DNA from: an uncultured Gammaproteobacteria bacterium
Lineage (GTDB): Bacteria; Patescibacteriota; Microgenomatia; Woykebacterales; RBG-16-39-9b
Assembly (NCBI GenBank): GCA_965231125.1
Contig: OZ246414.1
Coordinates: 209,739 to 273,738, forward strand
Direction of reading: 5' to 3'
DNA: 64,000 nucleotides
Below, one piece after another: positions 2-48,572 of the stretch. Every line of letters starts with the position of its first letter. Position 1 is the first letter of the stretch. The position numbers and the translations under genes are program-made. The notes below the pieces were generated by a model. The model was not told the origin of the DNA, did not search any database, and saw only the letters and a list, made by a program, of their open reading frames with translations.

Positions 2-895
2 GGTAGGGTAACGGTTGGAAACTTTAGCACGGTTACCTCGAAAAAATACCCAGCTGGTACTAGCATAACTGCGGTTGGCGGTGCGTCTCAAGGTTTAATC
101 TTTACTTTGGACACAGCTGTCACTGTTCCAAAAGCTACCTCTTCAGGTTTTAATATTGTGGCTGGGCAAGCCGGCGTTAATGTAACCGCCAGCAAAATTG
201 GAGATAAAGGCAATGTTTCGGCAGGGTCTGATTTTCAAGTAGATGACGAGTCAATTGGGACCGTTAAAGCAACTAACGACCTTGATTTTTCGGGAGGAGA
301 ATCCCACCAGATAACGGCTGTATCCGACGAGGACAGAAAAAATCTTAGGGCGAAACTTTTAGCCAAACTTACTCAGGAGGCTAAGAAAGATCTTCAGAAC
401 AAACTTGGAGGGGCAAGCGTGCCGAACGGTGGTCTATCCGTTCAGGTGACCACAGAAAAATACGATAAGGCGGCCGGTGAGCAAGCAAAGGAAGTTAATT
501 TGACGATGGAGGTAACCGCCAGCGCAAAACTTTTTAAGGAGGAAGACCTCAAGAAAGTGTTAATTGGGTCAATGACAGTTCCGGATGGCTACGTCATAGA
601 TGAATCTGCCTCGCAAGTAAGTTCTAAAATAATCGGTACGGCTGGACAAGACGGTGCGGTGCAAGTTTTAGGAAAAATTAAAGCCGTTTTGGTGCCGGAT
701 ATAAAGCCTGAAGAACTGGCTGGTTATTTGGCGGGTAAAAGCTTTGGGGCCGCTAATTCATATCTGACAACTCTAAAAAATATTTCTGGGTTTGATATAG
801 AAATTAGGCCGGCAATATTTAGGATATTTAAGATTCTGCCTTTTAACAAATCCAGAATTAAAATTGACATATCGGAGCAGGATAGTGCAGACTAA
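2..895 (+). CDS. hypothetical secreted/surface protein, 5'-truncated by the window edge
   Basis: The frame of ORF 107..895 stays open back to position 2, so the CDS enters from upstream. It has Gly/Thr/Ser/Val-rich strand-like segments and no recognisable catalytic motif. Confidence 0.45.
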   Translation, partial: GRVTVGNFSTVTSKKYPAGTSITAVGGASQGLIFTLDTAVTVPKATSSGFNIVAGQAGVNVTASKIGDKGNVSAGSDFQVDDESIGTVKATNDLDFSGGESHQITAVSDEDRKNLRAKLLAKLTQEAKKDLQNKLGGASVPNGGLSVQVTTEKYDKAAGEQAKEVNLTMEVTASAKLFKEEDLKKVLIGSMTVPDGYVIDESASQVSSKIIGTAGQDGAVQVLGKIKAVLVPDIKPEELAGYLAGKSFGAANSYLTTLKNISGFDIEIRPAIFRIFKILPFNKSRIKIDISEQDSAD

Positions 896-1892
896 CTGGG
901 TTAAAAAAGGGAGAGTAATTGGTCCTTTTGGCGTATTTTCCACATTGCTAATAACAAGCTTTTTACTAGTAATTGCCGGCGTCTCGGTAGCAGGGGCTTG
1001 GTACAAAATTTCGCTCAAACCAAAAGGTGGAAACGTAACAAAAATTTTCGTAATTGGCAAAGGAGAGACAGCCCGAGAAATCGTCGGGAGGTTAGAAGAG
1101 GAAGGGCTAATTAAGAGCGCTTTCGCTTTCAGAATATACCTCTCAAGCTCTGGGTTTGGTAGTAAAATCCAAACCGGAACCTTTCGCCTCTCCTCAAATC
1201 AAAGTGCGCTTGAGCTTGCCCAGGAGTTACAAGGAGGTGAGCTGGATAAATGGGTTACTTTAGTGGAAGGTTTAAGAGACACGGAAATGGCCGCGATTTT
1301 GGCCAAGGAGTTCGCTATTAGCGAGGAAAATTTCATAAGTGCAGCCAAAGAAGGCTACATGTTTCCCGACACTTACTTAGTACCTGTGGATACCTCAGCT
1401 GAAAAAATTGTTACTATTCTAAGGAAAAATTTTGATAAAAAGGTTGATACGAAAGTTAGAGATCAAGCTAAAAAGGAGGGTTTAACTTTAAACGAGCTGA
1501 TAACACTGGCCTCAATAGTTGAGAGGGAATCTAAGACTGGTTCCGAGCGGCCAATAATTGCGGGAATCCTGCTTAAGAGATTTAAAGAAGGAATTCCTTT
1601 AGGAGCAGATGCTACTGTCCAGTACGCTTTGGGCTATCAATCAAGTGAGAAAACTTGGTGGAAAAAAATCCTTACCGATGAAGATCTTCAAACTGATAGC
1701 CCTTACAACACTCGCAAGTTTGCAGGTTTACCACCAACGCCAATATGTAACCCTGGACTTGCTGCTATTAAAGCAGCCGCCGATCCAAAATTTACCAATT
1801 ACAATTTTTATCTTCATGACCCCCAAGGAAAGGTTCATTTCGCTGAAACTTTGGAAGAACATAATGCAAACATTGCTAAACATTTAAGATAA
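864..1892 (+). CDS. mltG: endolytic murein transglycosylase MltG/YceG family
   Basis: N-terminal TM helix followed by a YceG-like domain (GTFRL, PDTYL, PTPICNPG motifs). Overlaps the upstream ORF by 32 nt, so the start may lie further downstream. Confidence 0.8.
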   Translation: MTYRSRIVQTNWVKKGRVIGPFGVFSTLLITSFLLVIAGVSVAGAWYKISLKPKGGNVTKIFVIGKGETAREIVGRLEEEGLIKSAFAFRIYLSSSGFGSKIQTGTFRLSSNQSALELAQELQGGELDKWVTLVEGLRDTEMAAILAKEFAISEENFISAAKEGYMFPDTYLVPVDTSAEKIVTILRKNFDKKVDTKVRDQAKKEGLTLNELITLASIVERESKTGSERPIIAGILLKRFKEGIPLGADATVQYALGYQSSEKTWWKKILTDEDLQTDSPYNTRKFAGLPPTPICNPGLAAIKAAADPKFTNYNFYLHDPQGKVHFAETLEEHNANIAKHLR

Positions 1893-1993
1893 GCAAAGAC
1901 ACTTGTAAACTTTGTGGGTACCAACTGACTTCGGACAAAAATGGAACGCAAGGTAGGATAAAATTTGACAAATAAGTAAGGCGTGTTTTATGC

Positions 1994-2434
1994 TTGAAGA
2001 AACTGCTTGTGAACGATAATCAAATCAAAACCACAAACTGGACCGCCTTTTTTCTCATCGTTGCTTTCCTGATTTTAGTGCCCGCACTTATTAGTTTCCT
2101 CTACTTAAGCGGCAAGGGTACGGAAAATGTAAAGAAGGAAACAAAAGTTAGCAGGATAGCCGGTCAGGCTCGGGTTTCCATCACCAAAGCCGGTTTTACC
2201 CCTTCTACCATCCAGATAGAGAAGGGCGTCCAGGTCACCTGGACCAACAACGACAGCTCCCCCCATCGAGTAGCGTCTGATCCTTACCCAACTCACACCA
2301 GTTTACCAGCCCTAGATTCTGAGATTCTAGCCCCCAAGGAGTCTTTCAGCTTTATCTTTGAGAAAATGGGCACCTTTACTTATCACGATCACCTCAAGCC
2401 ATTAAAGATTCGGGGGACTGTAATTGTCAAATGA
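1994..2434 (+). CDS. cupredoxin-fold (plastocyanin-like) protein with a degenerate copper site, membrane-anchored
   Basis: TM helix followed by TWTNNDSSPHRV...GTFTYHDHL. It is a paralogue of the 43648..44082 cupredoxin, but the Cys and Met copper ligands are replaced (HCSIH..M becomes HDHL..I). TTG start. Confidence 0.6.
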   Translation: MKKLLVNDNQIKTTNWTAFFLIVAFLILVPALISFLYLSGKGTENVKKETKVSRIAGQARVSITKAGFTPSTIQIEKGVQVTWTNNDSSPHRVASDPYPTHTSLPALDSEILAPKESFSFIFEKMGTFTYHDHLKPLKIRGTVIVK

Positions 2435-4521
2435 TGAATTTTGTTAGAGAACCGATTAATTTAAGAGATTACCGTCACCTAACTTCAATAGTCGTCGTGG
2501 CGTTTATTTTTGTTTCAGTCGTTGTTACAGTAAGTGGAGGTTTGAAACTTGAGGAGACAACTCGTAAACCAAAAGCAGCTAATCCATTAGAAACCATGAC
2601 CACCCCAGAAGGTACCGTTATAAACATTTATACAACCGGCGTGACGGCTGCGCAAATGTACAAATATTTGAAGGATAATGGCCTGGATTATGCAAGAGTT
2701 GGATCAGAAATGCGGGTAGACGTGGTTCCAACAGGTTTCACCACCGCGAGTGTTGGTTGCGGGTCTAGCGGCTCGACTTACGTTGCTAACCCCCCTGCAT
2801 TGCAGTTTAACATAAACGATATACTTTCTCACCCCAATTATTCTGTCGCCTACGAGTATTCTCACGCTTGGTTTACTTATTTTGCCTGTACTGCCTGGAA
2901 AGGTTCCTGGGACGAGTATCTTAAAGCCCGCAACCTCCTCGGTGATCCTCGACTTAATACGGATCTGTGTTGGACAGTTAATGACGGTCTGAGCGGCAGT
3001 GATTATGTAAAACTTTTTGCTCTGCCAGATCCTGGAGTTATTGTTGCCAAATGCCCCCCGGATATTCCGCTTGCCTCAGATGTGCCGGGTCTTAAAACTT
3101 TCTTAACCACAACCTGGAAGACCGGTTATAGTGGGACGGATACAGTTGCACCAACGGTCTCTATCAGACAACCGTCTAATAATGGTAATGTTTCTGGAAC
3201 TTCAGTCCAGATTTCTGCCAGTGCGGCGGATAATAATGGGGTTGCCTATGTTGAGTTTTATATCGATGGTGCTCTGAAACGGTTGGATGCTTACGGTTTC
3301 AATTTTGATTATACTTGGGACTCGACAAAAGTCGCTGACGGAGCACATGCAATCACTACCAAGGCCTATGACGCCGCTGGAAATACTGCATCGGCATCTA
3401 TTAATGTAAATGTTAATGGTTCAGGTGGGGATACCCAGGCACCCACTGTAACCATTACTTCTCCAGCGAACGGTGCTTCAGTTTCTGGGAATGTGAATGT
3501 AAATGCCAACGCTACGGATAATGTTGGGGTGACCAAAGTCGAGTTCTCTGTAGACGGGCTCTTGAGGGCTACTGATACAACCTCACCATACGGATTTACT
3601 TGGGATTCGACTACGGTTACAAATGGTACTCGCAATCTTTCTGCTAAAGCATTTGATGCGGCAGGTAATGTTGCTTCCGACACGATTTCTGTCACTGTGG
3701 CAAATGGTGACACCCAACCCCCATCAACACCCTCGGGTCTGACAGCTAGTGCAGCTAGTGCTACCTCAGTTAATCTCTCCTGGACCGCCAGTACAGATAA
3801 TGTTGGAGTCACTGGCTACTGGATTGTCAGGAATGGGGTCACGATTGCTTCTTCACTCACCAACAGTTACACTGATAATTCTGTTTCACCCGCAACCACC
3901 TACAACTACCAAGTAATCGCCTTTGATGCGGCTGGTAATACCTCTAGTACTTCTAACACCGCCACAGTGACTACCCCGGCTGCTCCGGATACTACACCAC
4001 CCTCCGCACCAACTAATCTAGTGGCCACGCCTGGTTCTTCTTCTCAGATTAACTTAAGCTGGACTGCCAGTACAGATAATGTAGGTGTGACTGGCTATGA
4101 TATTTACAGAAACAGTACTAAGATTGCCAAGGTGACTACAACAAGTTTTGGGGACACAGGACTGGCCGCCTCCACCACTTACAGTTACTTTGTCAAAGCA
4201 ATGGATGCGGTTGGTAATACCTCCAGCCCATCTAATACAGCTACTGCTACTACACTTAATCCTTCAATAAAAGGCAACATCACTGGAACCGTATTTAGCT
4301 CTGCTGGTGGGGTTGTAGCTGGGGCGAAACTTACTATATTTGTTTCTGGAAGCAAGAGAACATATTACACTTCTTCCTTTGGGATTTATTTTATCGACAG
4401 CATTCCCGTAGGTACTTACGATCTTCGGGTGTCAGCCCAGAGGTTTGCGCAGCAACAAGTGCAAGTTAGTGTGATAGCTAATACTACGACTACAAAAGAC
4501 ATCACTTTACAGAAAAGATAA
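2431..4521 (+). CDS. large cell-surface protein: TM anchor, novel N-terminal domain, 2 Ig-like plus 2 FN3 repeats, and a C-terminal carboxypeptidase-regulatory-like beta-sandwich
   Basis: ATGA overlap with the upstream gene. Ig-like repeats contain VEFxVDG...YGFxWDST...AxDAAGN. FN3 repeats contain LSWTASTDNVGVTGY. The C-terminal segment GTVxx..G..V.GA.L reads like CarboxypepD_reg. Confidence 0.8.
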   Translation: MMNFVREPINLRDYRHLTSIVVVAFIFVSVVVTVSGGLKLEETTRKPKAANPLETMTTPEGTVINIYTTGVTAAQMYKYLKDNGLDYARVGSEMRVDVVPTGFTTASVGCGSSGSTYVANPPALQFNINDILSHPNYSVAYEYSHAWFTYFACTAWKGSWDEYLKARNLLGDPRLNTDLCWTVNDGLSGSDYVKLFALPDPGVIVAKCPPDIPLASDVPGLKTFLTTTWKTGYSGTDTVAPTVSIRQPSNNGNVSGTSVQISASAADNNGVAYVEFYIDGALKRLDAYGFNFDYTWDSTKVADGAHAITTKAYDAAGNTASASINVNVNGSGGDTQAPTVTITSPANGASVSGNVNVNANATDNVGVTKVEFSVDGLLRATDTTSPYGFTWDSTTVTNGTRNLSAKAFDAAGNVASDTISVTVANGDTQPPSTPSGLTASAASATSVNLSWTASTDNVGVTGYWIVRNGVTIASSLTNSYTDNSVSPATTYNYQVIAFDAAGNTSSTSNTATVTTPAAPDTTPPSAPTNLVATPGSSSQINLSWTASTDNVGVTGYDIYRNSTKIAKVTTTSFGDTGLAASTTYSYFVKAMDAVGNTSSPSNTATATTLNPSIKGNITGTVFSSAGGVVAGAKLTIFVSGSKRTYYTSSFGIYFIDSIPVGTYDLRVSAQRFAQQQVQVSVIANTTTTKDITLQKR
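3142..3708 (+). repeat. intragenic tandem duplication encoding 2 Ig-like domains (about 96 aa each)
   Basis: Two consecutive units, 3142..3429 and 3430..3708, with a conserved protein pattern. Confidence 0.7.
3709..4254 (+). repeat. intragenic tandem duplication encoding 2 FN3-like domains (about 93 aa each)
   Basis: Units 3709..3987 and 3988..4254 share DTxPPSxPxxL...LSWTASTDNVGVTGY...AxDAxGNTSS. Confidence 0.7.
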
Positions 4522-4649
4522 AAGTCCCCTCTAAAAATAATTTTGGCTGGCCCAGTATATTGACTAACTTTTTAAGTGAAGAACTAGCTTAAAAACTGCA
4601 GCTTCTGCGCTAAAACAAAACATGCTGGGATACATGCTTGGGTTGGGTC

Positions 4650-4678
4650 TTGACAAGTCGACCTTTCGATGTTATTAT
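4650..4678 (+). promoter_or_regulatory. sigma70-like promoter for rpoBC (TTGACA-17-TATTAT)
   Basis: -35 TTGACA at 4650..4655, 17-nt spacer, -10 TATTAT at 4673..4678, about 225 nt upstream of the rpoB ATG. Confidence 0.5.
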
Positions 4679-4696
4679 AAGCGTAATTGAATATGG

Positions 4697-4739
4697 AAAT
4701 GACGTACGAATGTACGAGGTACGTCATTATTTTTTGCGT
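4697..4739 (+). terminator. intrinsic-terminator-like hairpin (attenuator) in the rpoB leader
   Basis: Perfect 10-bp arms AATGACGTAC / GTACGTCATT with an 11-nt loop, followed by ATTTTTTGCGTTTT. Confidence 0.5.
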
Positions 4740-4797
4740 TTTACTCGTTTTAATCTTCTCCGATAAGGATCGGGGAAATGACGTCCTCTCCAACTTC

Positions 4798-4820
4798 ACG
4801 TCGGAGCTGCCGACGTTTTA
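4798..4820 (+). terminator. second hairpin plus T-run in the rpoB leader
   Basis: ACGTCGG-agctg-CCGACGT followed by TTTTA. Confidence 0.35.
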
Positions 4821-4908
4821 TCGCCCCTAGGGTCGGGGAAAATAATTAGAGGTACTTCTTCGTAGATCCAGAAGAGTACCATAGAATTTATCTTAATTTA
4901 ATATTTTG

Positions 4909-8269: not shown

Positions 8270-11200
8270 ATGAATGAAATTAAAGATTTTGAAGCATTAA
8301 GAATAATTTTGGGTTCGGCTGAGGATATACTAAGTTGGTCTCACGGAGAAGTTACCAAGCCCGAGACCATAAACTACCGAACTTTCAGACCAGAGAAAGA
8401 CGGTCTTTTCGATGAAAAGATTTTTGGACCCACTAAAGATTGGGAATGTTATTGCGGAAAATACAAGAGAATTCGTTACCGCGGAGTTATCTGTGACAAG
8501 TGTGGGGTTGAAGTTACTCAATCGAAGGTTAGGAGAGAACGAATGGGTCATATTAGTCTAGCCGCACCAGTCGCCCATGTTTGGTTTTTCAAAGGTTCTC
8601 CTTCTAAACTGTCTCAACTTCTAGATCTTACCCCGCGGAGTTTAGAAGCGATAATTTACTTTGCACAGTACATAGTTGTCGAAGTTAACGAGGATAAAAG
8701 AAAGGAGGCCTTGGAAAAGGTTGAGGAAAGAATAAAAAAGACAAAAGAGGAGATAAAAGATCAGTTTGCGAAACAAGCTAAGGAAGTGGAAAAGGAAGCG
8801 GAAGCCGAGATAAAAAAATTAGATATAAAAAACAAAGAACAAAAGGAATTAATAATTGAGGAGCTTAATCTAAAAACAAAGGCGCGCCTTGCTTCCTTGA
8901 GGGATGAGGAGGCTAACGAACTGGCAAAAGCTGATGATGAAAGCAAAGTAACTTTAGAAAAAATAAAATCCATTGTACCGGTATCCCTTCTTTCAGAAGA
9001 AGAATATCTAAAATTAACGGATTTTGGAGCCAGCAGTTTCTTAAAAGTAGGCATGGGTGCGGAAGCTCTGGTTCAAATTCTAAAGTCAATTGATTTGGCT
9101 AAATTAGCCCAGCGGCTTCGAGAAGAAGTCCAAAATTACACTGGACAAAGGCAGATAAAAGCAACGAAAACTCTGCGAATTGTTGAGGGTTTAAGGACTG
9201 CCAGTATTGGCTTGGATAGAATGATTCTCAAGTATCTGCCGGTTATTCCCCCAGACCTTCGTCCAATGGTCCAACTTTCCGGTGGACGTTTTGCAACTAG
9301 TGATCTGAATGATTTGTACCGCCGGGTTATAAATAGGAACAATCGTCTGAAGCGTTTAATGGATTTGGGTGCACCAGAAATAATTTTAAGAAACGAAAAA
9401 AGAATGCTTCAAGAGGCTGTGGATGCCTTAATAGATTCTACTCAAAGACCTGTTGGTAGAGCTGCGCCGGCACAGCTGCGTTCCCTCTCCGACATGTTGA
9501 AAGGAAAGCAAGGAAGATTTCGCCAAAACCTTTTAGGTAAAAGAGTCGACTACTCTGGGAGAAGTGTAATTATAATTGCCCCAGATATTAAATTAAATGA
9601 GTGTAGGGTGCCAAAGGAAATGGCACTAGAGCTTTTTAAGCCTTATGTTCTTCGTGAATTAATCTTTCAGGGTTACGCACCCAATGTAAAAAGCGCTAAA
9701 AATGTTTTCGAGAGAAGAGGCGAAGAAGTTTGGGATATACTTGAGGCCATCACTAAAAACCACCCAGTGTTGTTAAACCGGGCCCCAACATTGCATCGGT
9801 TGGGAATTCAAGCTTTTTACCCAATACTTACCGAAGGAAACGCTATCGGTGTTCACCCATCGGTTTGTGCCGGTTACGGAGCAGATTTTGATGGTGATCA
9901 AATGGCAATTCACATTCCTCTATCGAAAGCGGCAATTGGCGAATCCGAAGAATTGATGATGTCAACAAATAATCTTCTGCGGCCGGCTGACGGTGAGCCC
10001 ATAATGACTCCACGGCACGACGTTTTTCTTGGTGTTTATTACCTTACGCACATGCAGGAAGGCGAGCCAAAGGGTTTTTTTGCCGAGGACGAGGCGGTAA
10101 CGGCCTATCAAGCAAATAAAATCTCACTCACCACCCCAATTAAAGTCTGGTACAAAGGTGAGCTGTTGGACACCACCGTGGGTAGAATTCTTTTTAACAA
10201 TATTCTTCCAGGAGAGTTGCAATTTATTAACAATCGGGTAAAAGGGTCCGATCTAAAAAATATTCTAACTTCCTGCCAAAACCTTTTTGGGACAGATCGT
10301 ACCGTTGCCTTAATTGACGATATAAAAGACTTGGGTTTCTATTTCGCTACAATCTCGGGGATATCCATGGCCATAGCCGACTGTGAAATACTTCCAGAAA
10401 AGAAAGGTTTAGTTAGCCAAGCGGATAGGAAAGTTGAAGACATAGAAGGCAACTACCGAAAGGGATTAATTACTCAAACTGAGAAAACCCGTCTTACCGA
10501 AGAAGTTTGGGCGGATGTAACGGCCCAAGTTGATGAAAAAACATGGAAGGCGCTGAGAAAAGATAATCCCTTGCGAATTTTGCAAGAATCTGGTGCCCGT
10601 GGTTCTCGCGACCAGATAAAACAGCTAGCCGGTATGCGTGGTCTAGTAGCGGACCCACTTGGTAGAATTGTGGAACTCCCATCGAAAAGTAATTTTAGGG
10701 AAGGATTAGATGTTTACGAATACTTTACTTCAACCCGAGGGGCCCGAAAAGGTTTGGTAGACAAGGCTCTTAAGACGGCTGATGCTGGTTACTTGACTCG
10801 TAGATTAGTAGACGTTACGCACGATGTGCTTGTCCGCGAGGATGATTGTAAAACCAAAGAGGGAATTAATGTATCTGAAAGTGAGGAACGAACCACCGTA
10901 CTCGCAAATAGAATATTTGGTCGCACCCTTGCAAGGGATTTAATTGATGATAGAGGAAAAATTATCCTTAAAAAAGGTGAACAGATTATTGATAATAATT
11001 TCGAAAAAGCTAAAGCCGCTAAAATTTCAACTGTTTTTATCCGGTCTACCCTTACTTGTGAAACCAAGTACGGCGTTTGTATAGCTTGTTACGGGATCGA
11101 TCTTTCTACCAAGAAACCAGTTAAAATCGGTACACCCGTTGGTGTTATCGCGGCTCAATCTATCGGAGAACCAGGGACCCAGCTTACAATGCGTACTTTC

Positions 11201-40684: not shown

Positions 40685-41598
40685 GTAACAGAAAATTGCT
40701 TTCGCTGATCGCGCTTATTATTTTAGTTCTGTCAGCGGGGTATTTTGTTTTCCGAAACTACCACCCTTCAGAAAGTTCCGGAAAGTTAAAAGTGGCAACT
40801 AGTTTCTACTCACTTTACTTTTTCACTAAGGAAATTGGAGGAGACAAGGTTGATGTTACCAACATTACTCCGGCTGGAGCAGAACCGCATGATCATGATC
40901 CTTCAACAGGTGACATTGTTAAGATTGAAGAAAGCAAAATGCTGGTTCTCAATGGTGCAGTAGAATCTTGGGGACACAAGATTAAGGACATTTTGAAGGG
41001 AAGTAATGTCCTGGTAGTTACTGCCGGAGAAGGTTTGCTAACCAAACAACTAACTGAAGGTGGGCAGACTGGTGTGGACCCGCACGTTTGGCTCGACCCT
41101 ATATTAGCCAAGCAAGAAGCTCACGCGATTGCCCAAGGATTGATTAAAGTCGATCCAGCTGACACTACCTTTTATCAACACAACGAAAAGAAACTCGACG
41201 GCGAGCTTGATCAGCTGGATCAGGATTATAGAAAAGGTTTGGTAAGTTGTCAGCAAAAAGACATTATAACTTCTCACGCCGCCTTTGCTTATCTTGGCTC
41301 TCGCTACGGGCTTAACCAAGTAGCAATCTCTGGTCTTTCGCCAGATGCTGAGCCATCAGCCGCCCAACTAGCTGATGCAACCAACTTTGCCAAATCGCAC
41401 AACGTTAGATATATTTTCTTTGAGAGCTTGGTCAGTCCAAAGCTCTCCGACACCATTGCTAACGAAGTTGGCGCGAAGACATTAGTTCTTGATCCGATCG
41501 AAGGTCTGACCGATAATGATATTAAGGCAGGCAAGACCTACTTTACGGTGATGCAAGACAATCTAAACAATCTGCGTATCGCTCTGTCATGCAAATAG
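40681..41598 (+). CDS. znuA: metal (zinc) ABC transporter substrate-binding protein, ZnuA/TroA family
   Basis: Cluster-9 SBP homology with a short His/Asp-rich loop (PHDHDP). Confidence 0.85.
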   Translation: MSNRKLLSLIALIILVLSAGYFVFRNYHPSESSGKLKVATSFYSLYFFTKEIGGDKVDVTNITPAGAEPHDHDPSTGDIVKIEESKMLVLNGAVESWGHKIKDILKGSNVLVVTAGEGLLTKQLTEGGQTGVDPHVWLDPILAKQEAHAIAQGLIKVDPADTTFYQHNEKKLDGELDQLDQDYRKGLVSCQQKDIITSHAAFAYLGSRYGLNQVAISGLSPDAEPSAAQLADATNFAKSHNVRYIFFESLVSPKLSDTIANEVGAKTLVLDPIEGLTDNDIKAGKTYFTVMQDNLNNLRIALSCK

Positions 41599-42338
41599 AT
41601 CACAGCAAAAGTATTATTGAAGTTGATAAAGTTTCCTTTGCTTATAACGGTGAAGATGCGATTAAAGACGTGTCAATAGCCGTTCACAGAGGAGATTACT
41701 TAGGAATAATTGGTCCTAATGGCGGTGGGAAATCAACATTATTGAAAATAATGCTTGGGCTTTTGCACCCCAAAGAAGGAGTAATTAAACTTTTCAATCA
41801 GTCTATTGATGAATTTAAGGATTGGTCCAAAATTGGTTACGTCCCTCAAAAACCACCGAATTTCGAATTAAATTTTCCAGTGAGTGTTCGAGAAGTAGTC
41901 GCCATGGGTCGTTACGGAAAACGTGGTTTATTACGGTTTCCGACCAAAGAGGATGGAGAAAAAGTTAACAAAGCCTTGAGTCAAGTTGAAATGACAGAGT
42001 TTGCCGGTCGGCAAATTACCGAACTTTCGGGAGGACAGCAGCAAAGAGTTTTTATTGCCCGGGCACTAGTGAGCGAACCAGAGGTAATCTTTCTCGATGA
42101 ACCAACTGCCGGAGTTGATATTAAAACCCAAAAGAGTTTCTACGCACTGCTTGAAAAATTAAACCGAGATTTCGACCTCACTTTAGTTCTAATTTCCCAC
42201 GAACTTGACGTTTTGGCCCACGAGGCTACTGAACTGGCGTATATAAACAGAACTCTTGAGTATTACGGCGACCCAAAAGAATTTTTGAAGGGGGACTATT
42301 ACCACCAGTTTATTGGCAAGGGAGAGCCTCACCACTAA
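41589..42338 (+). CDS. znuC: metal ABC transporter ATP-binding protein
   Basis: Walker A GPNGGGKST, signature LSGGQQQRV, Walker B FLDEP. Confidence 0.9.
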   Translation: MQIDHSKSIIEVDKVSFAYNGEDAIKDVSIAVHRGDYLGIIGPNGGGKSTLLKIMLGLLHPKEGVIKLFNQSIDEFKDWSKIGYVPQKPPNFELNFPVSVREVVAMGRYGKRGLLRFPTKEDGEKVNKALSQVEMTEFAGRQITELSGGQQQRVFIARALVSEPEVIFLDEPTAGVDIKTQKSFYALLEKLNRDFDLTLVLISHELDVLAHEATELAYINRTLEYYGDPKEFLKGDYYHQFIGKGEPHH

Positions 42339-43132
42339 TGCTTTCGATTTTCCAATACAGTTTCATTGTGCGTGGTTTTGAGGCCGGCGTCGTCGTCGCC
42401 TTAATTGCTCCGTTGATTGGAATTTTTTTGGTGCTGCGTCGCTACTCTTTGATCGCCGATACACTAGCACATGTTTCGCTAGCTGGAGTGGCCATTGGGT
42501 TGCTTTTAAAGGTGAGCCCATTAATTACCGCTATTATTGTATCTGTTGCGTCCTCAGCCGCTATTGAACGTTTGCGTATTTCCAAAAAAGTTTATGGAGA
42601 AAGTGCCCTTGCAATTTTTCTTTCCGGAAGCTTAGCGTTAGCAATTGTTCTGATTAGTGCGGCCCATGGGTTCAATATTGATATCTTCAACTATCTCTTT
42701 GGATCAATTTTGACAGTGAGACAGACTGATATTTACCTTATCGCTTCCTTAGGAATAGTGATTTTGGTAGCAGTAGCGGCCTTTTATAAGGAATTACTTT
42801 TCGTTACTTTTGACGAGGAGGCGGCAGCTGTTAGCGGAATTCCGACTCGGTTAATCAATACAATGCTGATCGTCTTGGCTGCTTTTACAGTCGCCTTGGC
42901 AATTCCAGTAGTTGGAGTTTTGTTAATCGCGGCTTTGATCGTAATTCCAGTAGTAACTGCCCTCCAATTTAAAAGGGGTTTCAAACAAACTATTCTTATT
43001 GCGGAAGCAATCTCAGTTTTCTCGGTAATAGCGGGAATATTCACCTCTTTCTACTTAAATCTTTCCGCAGGTGGAACTATAGTCTTAATTGCGTTAGCAA
43101 TATTTTTAATTGCGTTAATTATTAACGATTGA
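42338..43132 (+). CDS. znuB: metal ABC transporter permease
   Basis: ZnuB/TroCD-type permease homology. Confidence 0.88.
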   Translation: MLSIFQYSFIVRGFEAGVVVALIAPLIGIFLVLRRYSLIADTLAHVSLAGVAIGLLLKVSPLITAIIVSVASSAAIERLRISKKVYGESALAIFLSGSLALAIVLISAAHGFNIDIFNYLFGSILTVRQTDIYLIASLGIVILVAVAAFYKELLFVTFDEEAAAVSGIPTRLINTMLIVLAAFTVALAIPVVGVLLIAALIVIPVVTALQFKRGFKQTILIAEAISVFSVIAGIFTSFYLNLSAGGTIVLIALAIFLIALIIND

Positions 43133-43157
43133 AAAAACCGTTTGTTATAATTAGTTT

Positions 43158-43529
43158 ATGGGCAGTAACGTTGAGATAAACGATACTTTACAGATTTCAA
43201 AAGAACAAGGTTTCCCGGGGGAATTAGATTTCGAAAGACACAAAGAAAAACCTTTTACAGCGGAGGATTTTAAGGAGAAAGTTTTTGAATTCAAAAACAA
43301 AAAGGGTGTGCGGATTTATAAAAGTCCGCCAGTCCGAAACTTTTTAGTTGAAAATAAAGCCGGCAAGTGGCTTTATTGGGGGTTGATCTATATCTTAGAG
43401 GTGACTAACAATTACGAGAAACAAATAACCTCAGGAAAGTATAAAATAATTTACATATATACACCTGAGGAAATGAGGCAGGCCCATAAATTGATAGATA
43501 GAGATCACGAAACAGGTTTTTTTGACTAA
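43158..43529 (+). CDS. hypothetical protein
   Basis: 123 aa, no recognisable motif. Confidence 0.45.
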   Translation: MGSNVEINDTLQISKEQGFPGELDFERHKEKPFTAEDFKEKVFEFKNKKGVRIYKSPPVRNFLVENKAGKWLYWGLIYILEVTNNYEKQITSGKYKIIYIYTPEEMRQAHKLIDRDHETGFFD

Positions 43530-43594
43530 ATTTATTTAGTTTCCGTCAACCGATATCTGCCTTCGCACCCGTAATCTTTTTACAATAACCGCTC

Positions 43595-43623
43595 TTGACT
43601 AAAATTTGATGCCAGAGTACAAT
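43595..43623 (+). promoter_or_regulatory. sigma70-like promoter TTGACT-17-TACAAT for the cupredoxin gene
   Basis: Consensus spacing, 25 nt upstream of the ATG. Confidence 0.5.
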
Positions 43624-43647
43624 TAGTTTTTGCAAGAAAGGTAGCAC

Positions 43648-44082
43648 ATGCGAAATATCATCATTGGTGTAATAATAATTGTTTTGATAATAGTTGGTGT
43701 ATGGTACTTTTCAGGTAAGAACAAAGGGTACAATACCCCAACTAACAGCTCGCAGAACCCATCTACTTCAAGCAGCCAAACCAAGTCTAACCAGACTGGC
43801 ACGACCCAAAAGCAATCTCAAGCATCTACCAGTGCTGTTACAATCCAAAACTTTGCTTTTAGCCCGGCGGACATTACCGTCAAAAAAGGTACTAAGGTGA
43901 CTTGGACCAATCAAGACAGCACTGCCCACACCGTAACTGAGACGGATGGTCAAAATGGGCCGGGTAGCGGTACTTTAAACCAAGGACAAACTTATTCTTT
44001 CACTTTTGACAGTGTTGGTACGTTCCACTACCACTGCTCGATCCACACTAGTATGACAGGTATGGTGACTGTTACCGAATAA
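43648..44082 (+). CDS. plastocyanin/azurin-type cupredoxin, membrane-anchored with a Ser/Thr/Gln-rich linker
   Basis: Type-1 copper ligand set: H in TAHTV and C, H, M in HYHCSIHTSMTGM. Confidence 0.8.
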   Translation: MRNIIIGVIIIVLIIVGVWYFSGKNKGYNTPTNSSQNPSTSSSQTKSNQTGTTQKQSQASTSAVTIQNFAFSPADITVKKGTKVTWTNQDSTAHTVTETDGQNGPGSGTLNQGQTYSFTFDSVGTFHYHCSIHTSMTGMVTVTE

Positions 44083-48498: not shown

Positions 48499-48572
48499 TG
48501 GTCGGGGAGGAGGGAATCGGACCCACGATACCGCACCCCCAGCGCGGTGTATTACCACTATACTACTCCCCG
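48499..48572 (-). tRNA. tRNA-Pro (anticodon GGG), CCA encoded
   Basis: 7-bp acceptor stem CGGGGAG/CTCCCCG, D-arm GTAT-AGTGGTA-ATAC, anticodon loop CTGGGGG, discriminator A plus CCA. One T-T mismatch in the T-stem and C55 in place of U. Confidence 0.75.

Follow-up and report, generated by a model that had tools for sequence, protein, structure and literature searches.

We analysed a 64-kb stretch of DNA (64,000 nucleotides (nt); the window throughout) from contig OZ246414.1 of assembly GCA_965231125.1, positions 209,739 to 273,738. Near its start lie two genes on the plus strand, the first coding for a 146-amino-acid (aa) cupredoxin-like protein without Cys and the second for a 696-aa modular exoprotein, and the stop codon of the one overlaps the start codon of the other (Table 1). 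On sequence comparison, the two genes most likely represent one instance of a conserved two-gene cassette, often present in several copies, that is found in Patescibacteria of the Saccharimonadia type. The recurrence of the pair points to a so far undescribed module of the cell surface and away from an electron carrier. An earlier note on this DNA had described a cupredoxin lacking its Cys and Met copper ligands, coupled to a membrane-anchored, adhesin-like protein with immunoglobulin (Ig)-like and FN3 domains.

The overlapping pair of open reading frames (ORFs) is confirmed by independent gene calls. Both proteins have exact matches on one 915-kb NCBI contig, and independent calls on further assemblies of this organism show the gene pair with the identical 4-nt overlap (locus L125). 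The ATGA overlap is seen likewise at two further loci, L038 and L039. No canonical Shine-Dalgarno sequence lies 5-12 nt upstream of the exoprotein ATG, which fits coupling by termination and reinitiation. We rejected a shorter exoprotein call (protein P0126), which starts at Met55 and is without the overlap, as homologues and class A partners (defined below) conserve the upstream leader, and the NCBI and Logan calls are both of the long form.

Table 1 Features of the two-gene locus and related sites. Coordinates are positions in the window unless a locus number precedes them; residues are numbered within each protein
Feature	Coordinates	Strand	Remarks
Promoter-like site TTGACA-18-TATGCT	1965..1994	+	Abuts cupredoxin start codon; consensus match only
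Cupredoxin-like gene, class A subfamily, Cys-less	1994..2434	+	TTG start, 146 aa
N-terminal transmembrane helix, residues 16-38, TNWTAFFLIVAF...FLYL	2039..2107	+	Kept in class A, generic in other subfamilies
Cupredoxin beta-sandwich ectodomain, residues 59-146	2168..2431	+	
His91, sole type-1 ligand position kept	2264..2266	+	Invariant, 82/82 paired members
Inserted loop SDPYPTH, residues 95-101	2276..2296	+	Family consensus SDP[HY]PxH
Former copper loop Y130-H131-D132-H133-L134-K135-P136-L-K-I139	2381..2410	+	Alignment
ATGA stop/start overlap	2431..2434	+	TGA 2432-2434 over ATG 2431-2433
Modular exoprotein gene	2431..4521	+	ATG start, 696 aa
Class A N-terminal leader, MMxFLxEPxNLRxxxHL + hydrophobic residues 19-37 + ...PKA	2431..2586	+	
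Head domain, residues 53-235	2587..3135	+	HExxH family without Pfam model
YEYSH, degenerate HE[YF]GH	2851..2865	+	In predicted helix; same in independent strain assembly
Two Big_7 Ig-like domains, residues ~240-426	3148..3708	+	125.7 bits vs 24.1
Two fibronectin type III domains, residues ~427-612	3709..4266	+	fn3, 60 bits vs 25
CarboxypepD_reg-like C-terminal tail, residues 613-696	4267..4518	+	50.2 bits vs 32.3
Strongest promoter-like match of the region, TTGACA-17-TATTAT + upstream TG	4650-4678		Ahead of rpoB; consensus match
Classical type-1 cupredoxin for comparison, His94, Cys130, His133, Met136 (YHCSIHTSM)	43648..44082	+	
Class A leaders at other loci	L038:926-1090; L039:5480-5644, 8424-8585; L048:2701-2847; L050:741-896; L069:2095-2238		

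By its fold, the 146-aa protein belongs to the cupredoxin family PF13473. Its match to Cupredoxin_1 (PF13473), over residues 57-145, has an E-value of 1.2e-9 and scores 38.6 bits where 27 is the cut-off, and the protein makes a marginal pass of Copper-bind (PF00127; 24.5 bits against 21.2). Its best sequence-profile matches are amicyanin and plastocyanin (E ~1e-13), and it fails the equivalog models for both, scoring 35.6 against 87.85 for plastocyanin (TIGR02656) and 31.5 against 110.2 for amicyanin (TIGR02657). In an AlphaFold2 (AF2) model built from a 71-sequence alignment, a transmembrane (TM) helix at about residues 16-39 is joined by a linker of lower confidence to a cupredoxin sandwich (residues 60-146) with a predicted local distance difference test (pLDDT) score of about 98. 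Foldseek matched the model to the PDB with a probability of 1.0, the best matches being the Nitrosopumilus purple cupredoxin 5fc9, plastocyanins, and amicyanins. Also among the matches were Cupredoxin_1 proteins from B. anthracis that were crystallised with Cu and with Zn (4hcf, 4hcg).

When aligned with amicyanin and with the second cupredoxin of the window, encoded at 43648, the protein has lost three of the four type-1 copper ligands: Cys is replaced by Asp132, the C-terminal His by Lys135, and Met by Ile139. As the defining ligand set was checked and is absent, this is not a type-1 copper protein. The earlier note was thus right about the scaffold, which the predicted structure bears out, and about the Cys and Met ligands, which the alignment bears out, but it overlooked the loss of the His, where the family consensus is Asn rather than the Lys of the window. 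A CupA-type Cu(I) chaperone was considered and rejected, the domain being without Cys or Met ligands. The protein encoded at 43648 had been called a paralogue. The two cupredoxins share 36% identity over 73 aa and belong to different, old subfamilies, and the term is only loosely apt. In the region of the 43648 cupredoxin (41589-44082) there are also a 123-aa ORF and, just upstream of the cupredoxin gene, genes for a permease with several membrane passes, which by eye looks ZnuB/ABC-3-like, and for the ATPase of an ATP-binding cassette (ABC) transporter, with GPNGGGKST as Walker A and LSGGQQQR as signature.

To place the 146-aa protein among its relatives, we searched with it for homologues and found 260. 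The first ~90 share its ligand substitutions and the SDP[HY]PxH insert, and the Cys-containing classical cupredoxins rank after them. The domain is without any Cys in 82 of 85 homologues, and 83 of the 85 have an N-terminal hydrophobic anchor, followed by a linker with a median length of 21 residues. Across the 82 members paired with an exoprotein gene, the Cys position is Asp in all 82, the His position is Asn in 68, and the Met position is hydrophobic. The ligand loss is therefore family-wide. No solved structure from the Cys-less group is among the 60 of 95 PDB profile matches listed, and neither Pfam nor NCBIfam has a family-specific curated model, only cupredoxin models matching. By sequence, this Cys-less family is a large one of the Patescibacteria, mostly of Saccharimonadia. 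Our literature searches found no description of the family or of the cassette. What is new here is a conserved cassette that occurs in multiple copies and in two classes with matched partners; the function discussed below is a proposal.

To determine how often the two genes occur together, we scanned one genome per species. The scan gave 37 loci, mostly from Saccharimonadia with some from Microgenomates, of which 34 were usable; the ORFs at these loci were called and clustered in this analysis. A Big_7/fn3 protein akin to the 696-aa protein is encoded directly beside the cupredoxin gene, on the same strand, at 21 of the 34 loci as well as in the window. Only 2 of 303 non-adjacent genes at these loci are of this type (Fisher odds ratio 80, p = 4e-17). 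In a metagenome scan, for which the best 80 of 173 confirmed relatives were taken, at least 61 of the 67 determinable loci are paired, a lower bound as L046 is also paired by its leader. The exoprotein type accounts for 4 of the 227 non-adjacent genes there (odds ratio 44, p = 2e-25). The conservation of the gene pair across genomes, a check that the earlier note had proposed, is borne out by both scans.

Precomputed gene calls with Pfam matches at four loci give the same picture. At L038, the cupredoxin gene is followed, with a 4-nt overlap, by one encoding a protein with the architecture Fervidolysin_NPro-Peptidase_S8-Big_7-fn3-CarboxypepD_reg. L039 has three cassettes within a 19-kb contig. 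At L040, the cupredoxin is preceded by an S8 subtilase that has this stalk and tail, and at L041 by a fn3/CarbopepD_reg protein. The pairing was not seen in the Microgenomates members nor at L042, which codes for a distant member next to a Rieske protein, suggesting that it is a feature of a subfamily centred on Saccharimonadia. Genes for RmuC-like, TsaD-like, and UvrD-like helicase proteins recur at the Microgenomates loci. We rejected them as partners, as they look like housekeeping synteny among related genomes. The UvrD/PcrA-like helicase at L003:12172-14379 has an apparent intein-like insertion (CLMPGSLIETKEG...VHNS), with homologues at L018, L029, L033, and L036.

The cassettes fall into two classes. 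In the majority (class B), the exoprotein gene comes first and the cupredoxin gene second, and the cupredoxin anchors are generic. The class B exoproteins have AxA signal peptides, with neither an LPXTG motif nor a C-terminal TM segment. In the minority (class A), the cupredoxin gene precedes the exoprotein gene with the 4-nt overlap. The window, L038, two of the L039 cassettes, L046, L048, L050, and L069 belong to this group. The order with the cupredoxin first, as in the window, is reversed in most relatives. Class A exoproteins share a leader of ~50 residues, MMxFLxEPxNLRxKxHL followed by a hydrophobic stretch ending IPLTV and then ...PKA. Their similarity ends right after the PKA and their heads are unrelated. 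In the fetched DNA, the leader is found only downstream of class A cupredoxins, and these (P0001-P0013) have in turn a common TM segment, TNWxAFxLI...G[FY]LYL. In these bacteria the leader may act as a specialised signal or anchor, and in the 696-aa protein its hydrophobic segment (residues 19-37) may be a permanent anchor or a cleaved leader. Either way, both proteins of the pair are extracytoplasmic, the cupredoxin being anchored in the membrane. As L039 bears both classes, they are co-existing paralogous systems with matched partners.

It is possible in principle that the adjacency is without function, the genes merely duplicating and travelling as a unit. Tandem arrays of cassettes are found at L039, L066, and L002, and co-duplication inflates our counts. 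However, the adjacency holds at 40-55% protein identity, in two gene orders, with many types of head, and across several Patescibacteria orders. The gaps are short, from -4 to ~30 nt in class B as elsewhere, and each of the two co-existing classes has matched features in both partners. We consider a functionless adjacency very improbable.

The 696-aa partner is a large extracytoplasmic Ig-like/FN3 protein, as the earlier note had said, with two Big_7 domains, two fn3 domains, and a CarboxypepD_reg-like tail. Left out of that description was an N-terminal head of ~180 aa (residues 53-235). The head belongs to a family with 521 representatives (E<=1e-3, 50% clustering) among 1.84 billion proteins. 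It has no Pfam match even at an E-value of 10, faint hints of Peptidase_M43/DUF1570 appearing in one relative only, and no sequence match in the PDB. Its AF2 model is poor (mean pLDDT 54), with strands at residues 95-127 and then a helix at 135-155 bearing the motif that corresponds to HExxH, and Foldseek gave no significant match to it. That motif is HE[YF]GH in 134 of the 150 best representatives of the family, compared with YEYSH in the window. A sequencing error was rejected as the cause because an independent JGI strain assembly has YEYSH too. With the first metal-binding His replaced by Tyr, catalysis by the head in the window may be lost or altered, and the domain may bind as a pseudo-enzyme instead of acting as a peptidase. 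Relatives of the head (P0126-P0275) combine it with Big_7, PKD, fn3, CBM60, and SdrD_B domains. In P0130 and P0177, a C-terminal Dockerin_1 takes the place of the fn3-CarboxypepD_reg of the window, suggesting that the C-terminal position hosts an anchoring module in this protein family.

Among the partners of the Cys-less cupredoxins, the heads vary: Peptidase_S8, GH16, GH5/GH53-like, GH39-like, malectin, Laminin_G_3 with CBM_4_9, and a Cys-containing CBM-like domain are all found. The Big_7/fn3 stalk is constant, as in most is the C-terminal CarboxypepD_reg-like domain. The tail is the module most constantly associated with the neighbouring Cys-less cupredoxin gene. A hidden Markov model of the tail found it in 74 proteins across all fetched loci, themselves gathered around cupredoxin genes, and 73 of the 74 adjoin a Cys-less cupredoxin gene there. 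Two head homologues without the stalk and tail (P0121 and P0122) have no cupredoxin neighbour, suggesting the cupredoxin tracks the stalk and tail and not the head. The adjacency is thus tight and conserved, and independent of the type of head.

The variable enzymatic or glycan-binding heads on a constant stalk and tail do not fit the description of the partner as primarily adhesin-like. The earlier note had proposed a redox-inactive cupredoxin and a membrane-anchored adhesin serving episymbiotic attachment to a host. Ig-like and FN3 domains with a degenerate YEYSH head are compatible with binding over catalysis. In cultivated Saccharibacteria, proteins containing FN3, dockerin, and VCBS domains are encoded among the genes required for growth on hosts, and host glycans are the suggested targets, with no mention of a cupredoxin (PMC10633639). 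The FN3 proteins among those host-growth genes agree with a role in attachment. Most cassette partners, however, carry hydrolase heads (S8, GH16, GH5, GH39-like) rather than adhesin heads, a link of the cassette to host contact is speculative, and the metal-free state of the cupredoxin is only assumed. Attachment to a host overlaps with the explanation that we prefer, but as the specific role of this pair it seems decidedly unlikely.

We propose instead that the cupredoxin serves the adjacent exoprotein outside the cytoplasm as a dedicated partner, or tether, a reading to which we give a probability of roughly 40%. The first gene would code for a small type II membrane protein whose copper-less cupredoxin ectodomain has lost electron carriage. 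This protein would be a dedicated protein-binding subunit, which holds or organises the neighbour's constant part on the cell surface through a non-covalent tether similar to that of cohesin and dockerin. In class A, an additional helix-helix contact in the membrane is probable, since both partners have conserved N-terminal membrane segments. Binding of the exoprotein by the cupredoxin is what we infer from the gene adjacency.

A wider form of this proposal is more tentative. Membrane-anchored, copper-less cupredoxins, each encoded beside its client, could be the cognate receptors of a Saccharimonadia surface-display system, binding the fn3/CarboxypepD_reg tails of secreted proteases, glycosidases, and lectins, with the class A receptor also binding the leader. 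Such a system would be lineage-specific and non-covalent, with at least two receptor/client classes side by side in one genome. We find it possible rather than probable.

Similar arrangements are known. SufI/FtsP and ephrins are cupredoxin scaffolds without copper that act by protein-protein contact, the first a three-domain periplasmic protein like a multicopper oxidase and the second a eukaryotic ligand. Neither has a sequence relationship to the window protein. Like the cohesin-dockerin system, the cassettes have varied catalytic heads sharing one C-terminal module, which a cell-bound beta-sandwich protein could hold. Unlike in that system, each enzyme gene has its own adjoining partner and there is no common scaffoldin. 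Neither window protein has a cohesin or dockerin match in Pfam, Dockerin_1 being found only in the distant relatives of the head. The cargo of the type IX secretion system (T9SS) has a catalytic head, Ig/FN3 domains, and a constant C-terminal beta-sandwich sorting domain of ~80 aa. The cassette exoproteins resemble it as modular hydrolases with a constant C-terminal beta-sandwich. In contrast, their tail is CarboxypepD_reg-like, and Saccharibacteria are not known to have an outer membrane or a T9SS. Compared with amicyanin and plastocyanin, the Greek-key fold is kept, together with the first His ligand and the 'YH' that precedes the Cys position. The differences are the family-wide replacement of the Cys, C-terminal His, and Met, the insert of 5-7 residues (SDP[HY]PxH), the membrane anchor, and a genomic partner that is an exoprotein and not a redox enzyme.

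The same gene arrangement would suit a helper dedicated to the exoprotein outside the cytoplasm, whether chaperone, maturation factor, or regulator, acting for example in stalk folding after Sec export or in latency, with no stable tether. The one-to-one genetic association with translational coupling agrees with such a helper, as does the association following the constant stalk and tail rather than the head. The dominant order of exoprotein then cupredoxin might also bring a helper to the same membrane site after the C-terminus of its substrate emerges. On the other hand, the cupredoxin has no similarity to known foldase or inhibitor families in Pfam or NCBIfam, where only cupredoxin models match, and an inhibitor would be expected to track the type of head, which it does not. 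Sequence data cannot separate a chaperone from a tether, and we consider the chaperone unlikely.

Several observations weigh against the tether. The class A exoprotein is possibly anchored by its own leader, in which case a tether would be redundant there. The tail is missing from 11 adjacent partners, and its near-perfect association with the cupredoxin applies only to loci that were gathered around cupredoxin genes. The conservation of His91, His131, and Asp132 also fits a metal site. In addition, two loci place Cys-less cupredoxins in other settings. At L042:1092-1834 (GCA_964643435.1), the distant member P0073 is encoded 8 nt upstream of a 99-aa Rieske-domain protein, surrounded by pentose-phosphate genes and with no Big_7/fn3 partner. 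L035:27-10811 (CAZRJH010000004.1, from a metagenome-assembled genome labelled 'uncultured Gammaproteobacteria') has eight tandem genes, none with a Pfam match. In five of these, a TM anchor and a Cys-less cupredoxin domain (FWPASDPHPxH...YH[DN]H) are joined to a Cys/His-rich domain of ~350 aa with the motifs CHxxxH, CxYGFYHGF, and CYHGIGHG. The other three code for the Cys/His-rich domain alone. Such fusions, made by nature, may point to a role connected with metal in this lineage.

The protein could accordingly still be a metalloprotein, with non-type-1 Cu(II) or Zn bound at His91/Asp132 and/or at His98/101/131/133. Its role would be in metal handling, redox, or as an oxidase at the cell surface, and its link to the exoprotein would be indirect. 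In the 82 paired members, His91, Tyr130, Asp132, and Pro136 are invariant and His131, Asp96, and Pro97 nearly so. The window protein retains His91, His101, His131, Asp132, and His133. Plastocyanin has the residue before its Cys (Tyr83) beside the segment after the first His ligand (the acidic patch). By analogy, His98/101/131/133, of which 98, 101, and 133 are carried by the YH[DN]H strand and the inserted SDP[HY]PxH loop, could form a surface cluster by the old copper site. His98, His101, and His133 tend to be all kept or all lost, their co-variation giving Fisher p values of 1.7e-8, 5e-8, and 4.5e-4 (uncorrected for phylogeny). In 15 unpaired members, His98, His101, His131, Asp132, His133, and Asn135 are nearly fixed, while His91 is not.

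There are also precedents for metal binding by such proteins. The Cys-less FtrB has a predicted Asp/His Cu(II) site, and both FtrB and the azurin variant C112D, in which Cys is changed to Asp, bind Cu(II) (PMC11966278). The B. anthracis crystal structures with Cu and Zn, the Rieske neighbour, and the fusions to the Cys/His-rich domain point the same way. Like FtrB/EfeO-Cup and azurin C112D, the family has Asp in place of the thiolate ligand. FtrB is a ferroxidase with an Asp-x-x-His motif, encoded in ftrABCD iron-uptake operons (PMC11966278). In the Cys-less family, the Asp (Asp132) is found in 82/82 paired members, but the +3 position is Asn (68/82) or, in the window, Lys and not His. No Ftr or Efe genes are found near the window pair, which has YceG, the exoprotein, and rpoB as neighbours, nor elsewhere, where the neighbours are exoproteins. 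FtrB (8VUK) is also not among the 60 of 95 PDB profile matches listed for the family. With motif and genomic context both failing, membership in FtrB/EfeO was rejected.

The putative His cluster is itself mostly replaced in the paired members: position 98 is Tyr in 44/82 (His in 28), position 101 is Asn or Asp in 32/82 (18 and 14, with His in 36), and position 133 is Glu, Asn, or another residue in 56/82 (Glu in 20, Asn in 12, with His in 26). The position equivalent to the C-terminal His is Asn, or Lys as in the window in 3 of the 82, and working metal sites are rarely so variable. A common metal need is also improbable for partner heads as chemically unrelated as serine proteases, glycosidases, and lectins. 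The proximity of the His residues was taken from plastocyanin topology. We therefore view a metal site as the main function with considerable doubt. A residual site may persist, judging from the co-varying cluster 98/101/133, even though the type-1 site is gone. Of the earlier wording, 'redox-inactive or differently metallated', the loss of the type-1 site stands, and redox inactivity is an assumption; alternative His ligands elsewhere in the fold, which the note had named as speaking against its reading, are found in part. That the His cluster is relaxed specifically in the paired subfamily would agree with a move of the cupredoxin towards protein binding, as the tether would have it.

Patescibacteria rely on polymers in their surroundings and on other cells, and how they display or retain exoenzymes and binding proteins is little understood. 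The cassette is abundant: as many as three copies were found within 19 kb, and one metagenome scan yielded 173 confirmed relatives. Through it, a repurposed redox fold is connected to proteases, glycosidases, and lectins. Should the cupredoxin prove to be a receptor or tether, it would represent a new principle of surface organisation that arms wall-poor, ultrasmall episymbionts with hydrolases. The cupredoxin gene could then also serve as a marker by which sequence data alone lead to the exoproteome of uncultured Saccharibacteria. If instead the His cluster binds metal, it would be a new type of non-thiolate cupredoxin site.

The pair is flanked upstream by a YceG/MltG-like gene (864..1892) and downstream by rpoB and then rpoC. 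Because of the promoter-like sites ahead of the cupredoxin gene and before rpoB, both consensus matches only, the cupredoxin and exoprotein genes look like their own bicistronic unit. The -10-like hexamer of the first site overlaps the annotated TTG start at 1994 (region 1989-2011). Were this site a genuine promoter, translation might begin instead at an in-frame GTG (2009), or the transcript might have almost no leader. The intergenic stretch ahead of rpoB (4522-4905, 384 nt) has no Rfam match, and a 71-aa ORF on the minus strand at 4584..4799 is probably spurious. Upstream of the YceG-like gene, the ORF at 107-895 has a borderline match to Baseplate_J (21.6 bits against a cut-off of 21.1), and its counterpart at L125 is a gene of at least 515 aa. 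The only Rfam match at the gathering threshold in the whole 64 kb is a minus-strand tRNA (48502-48572).

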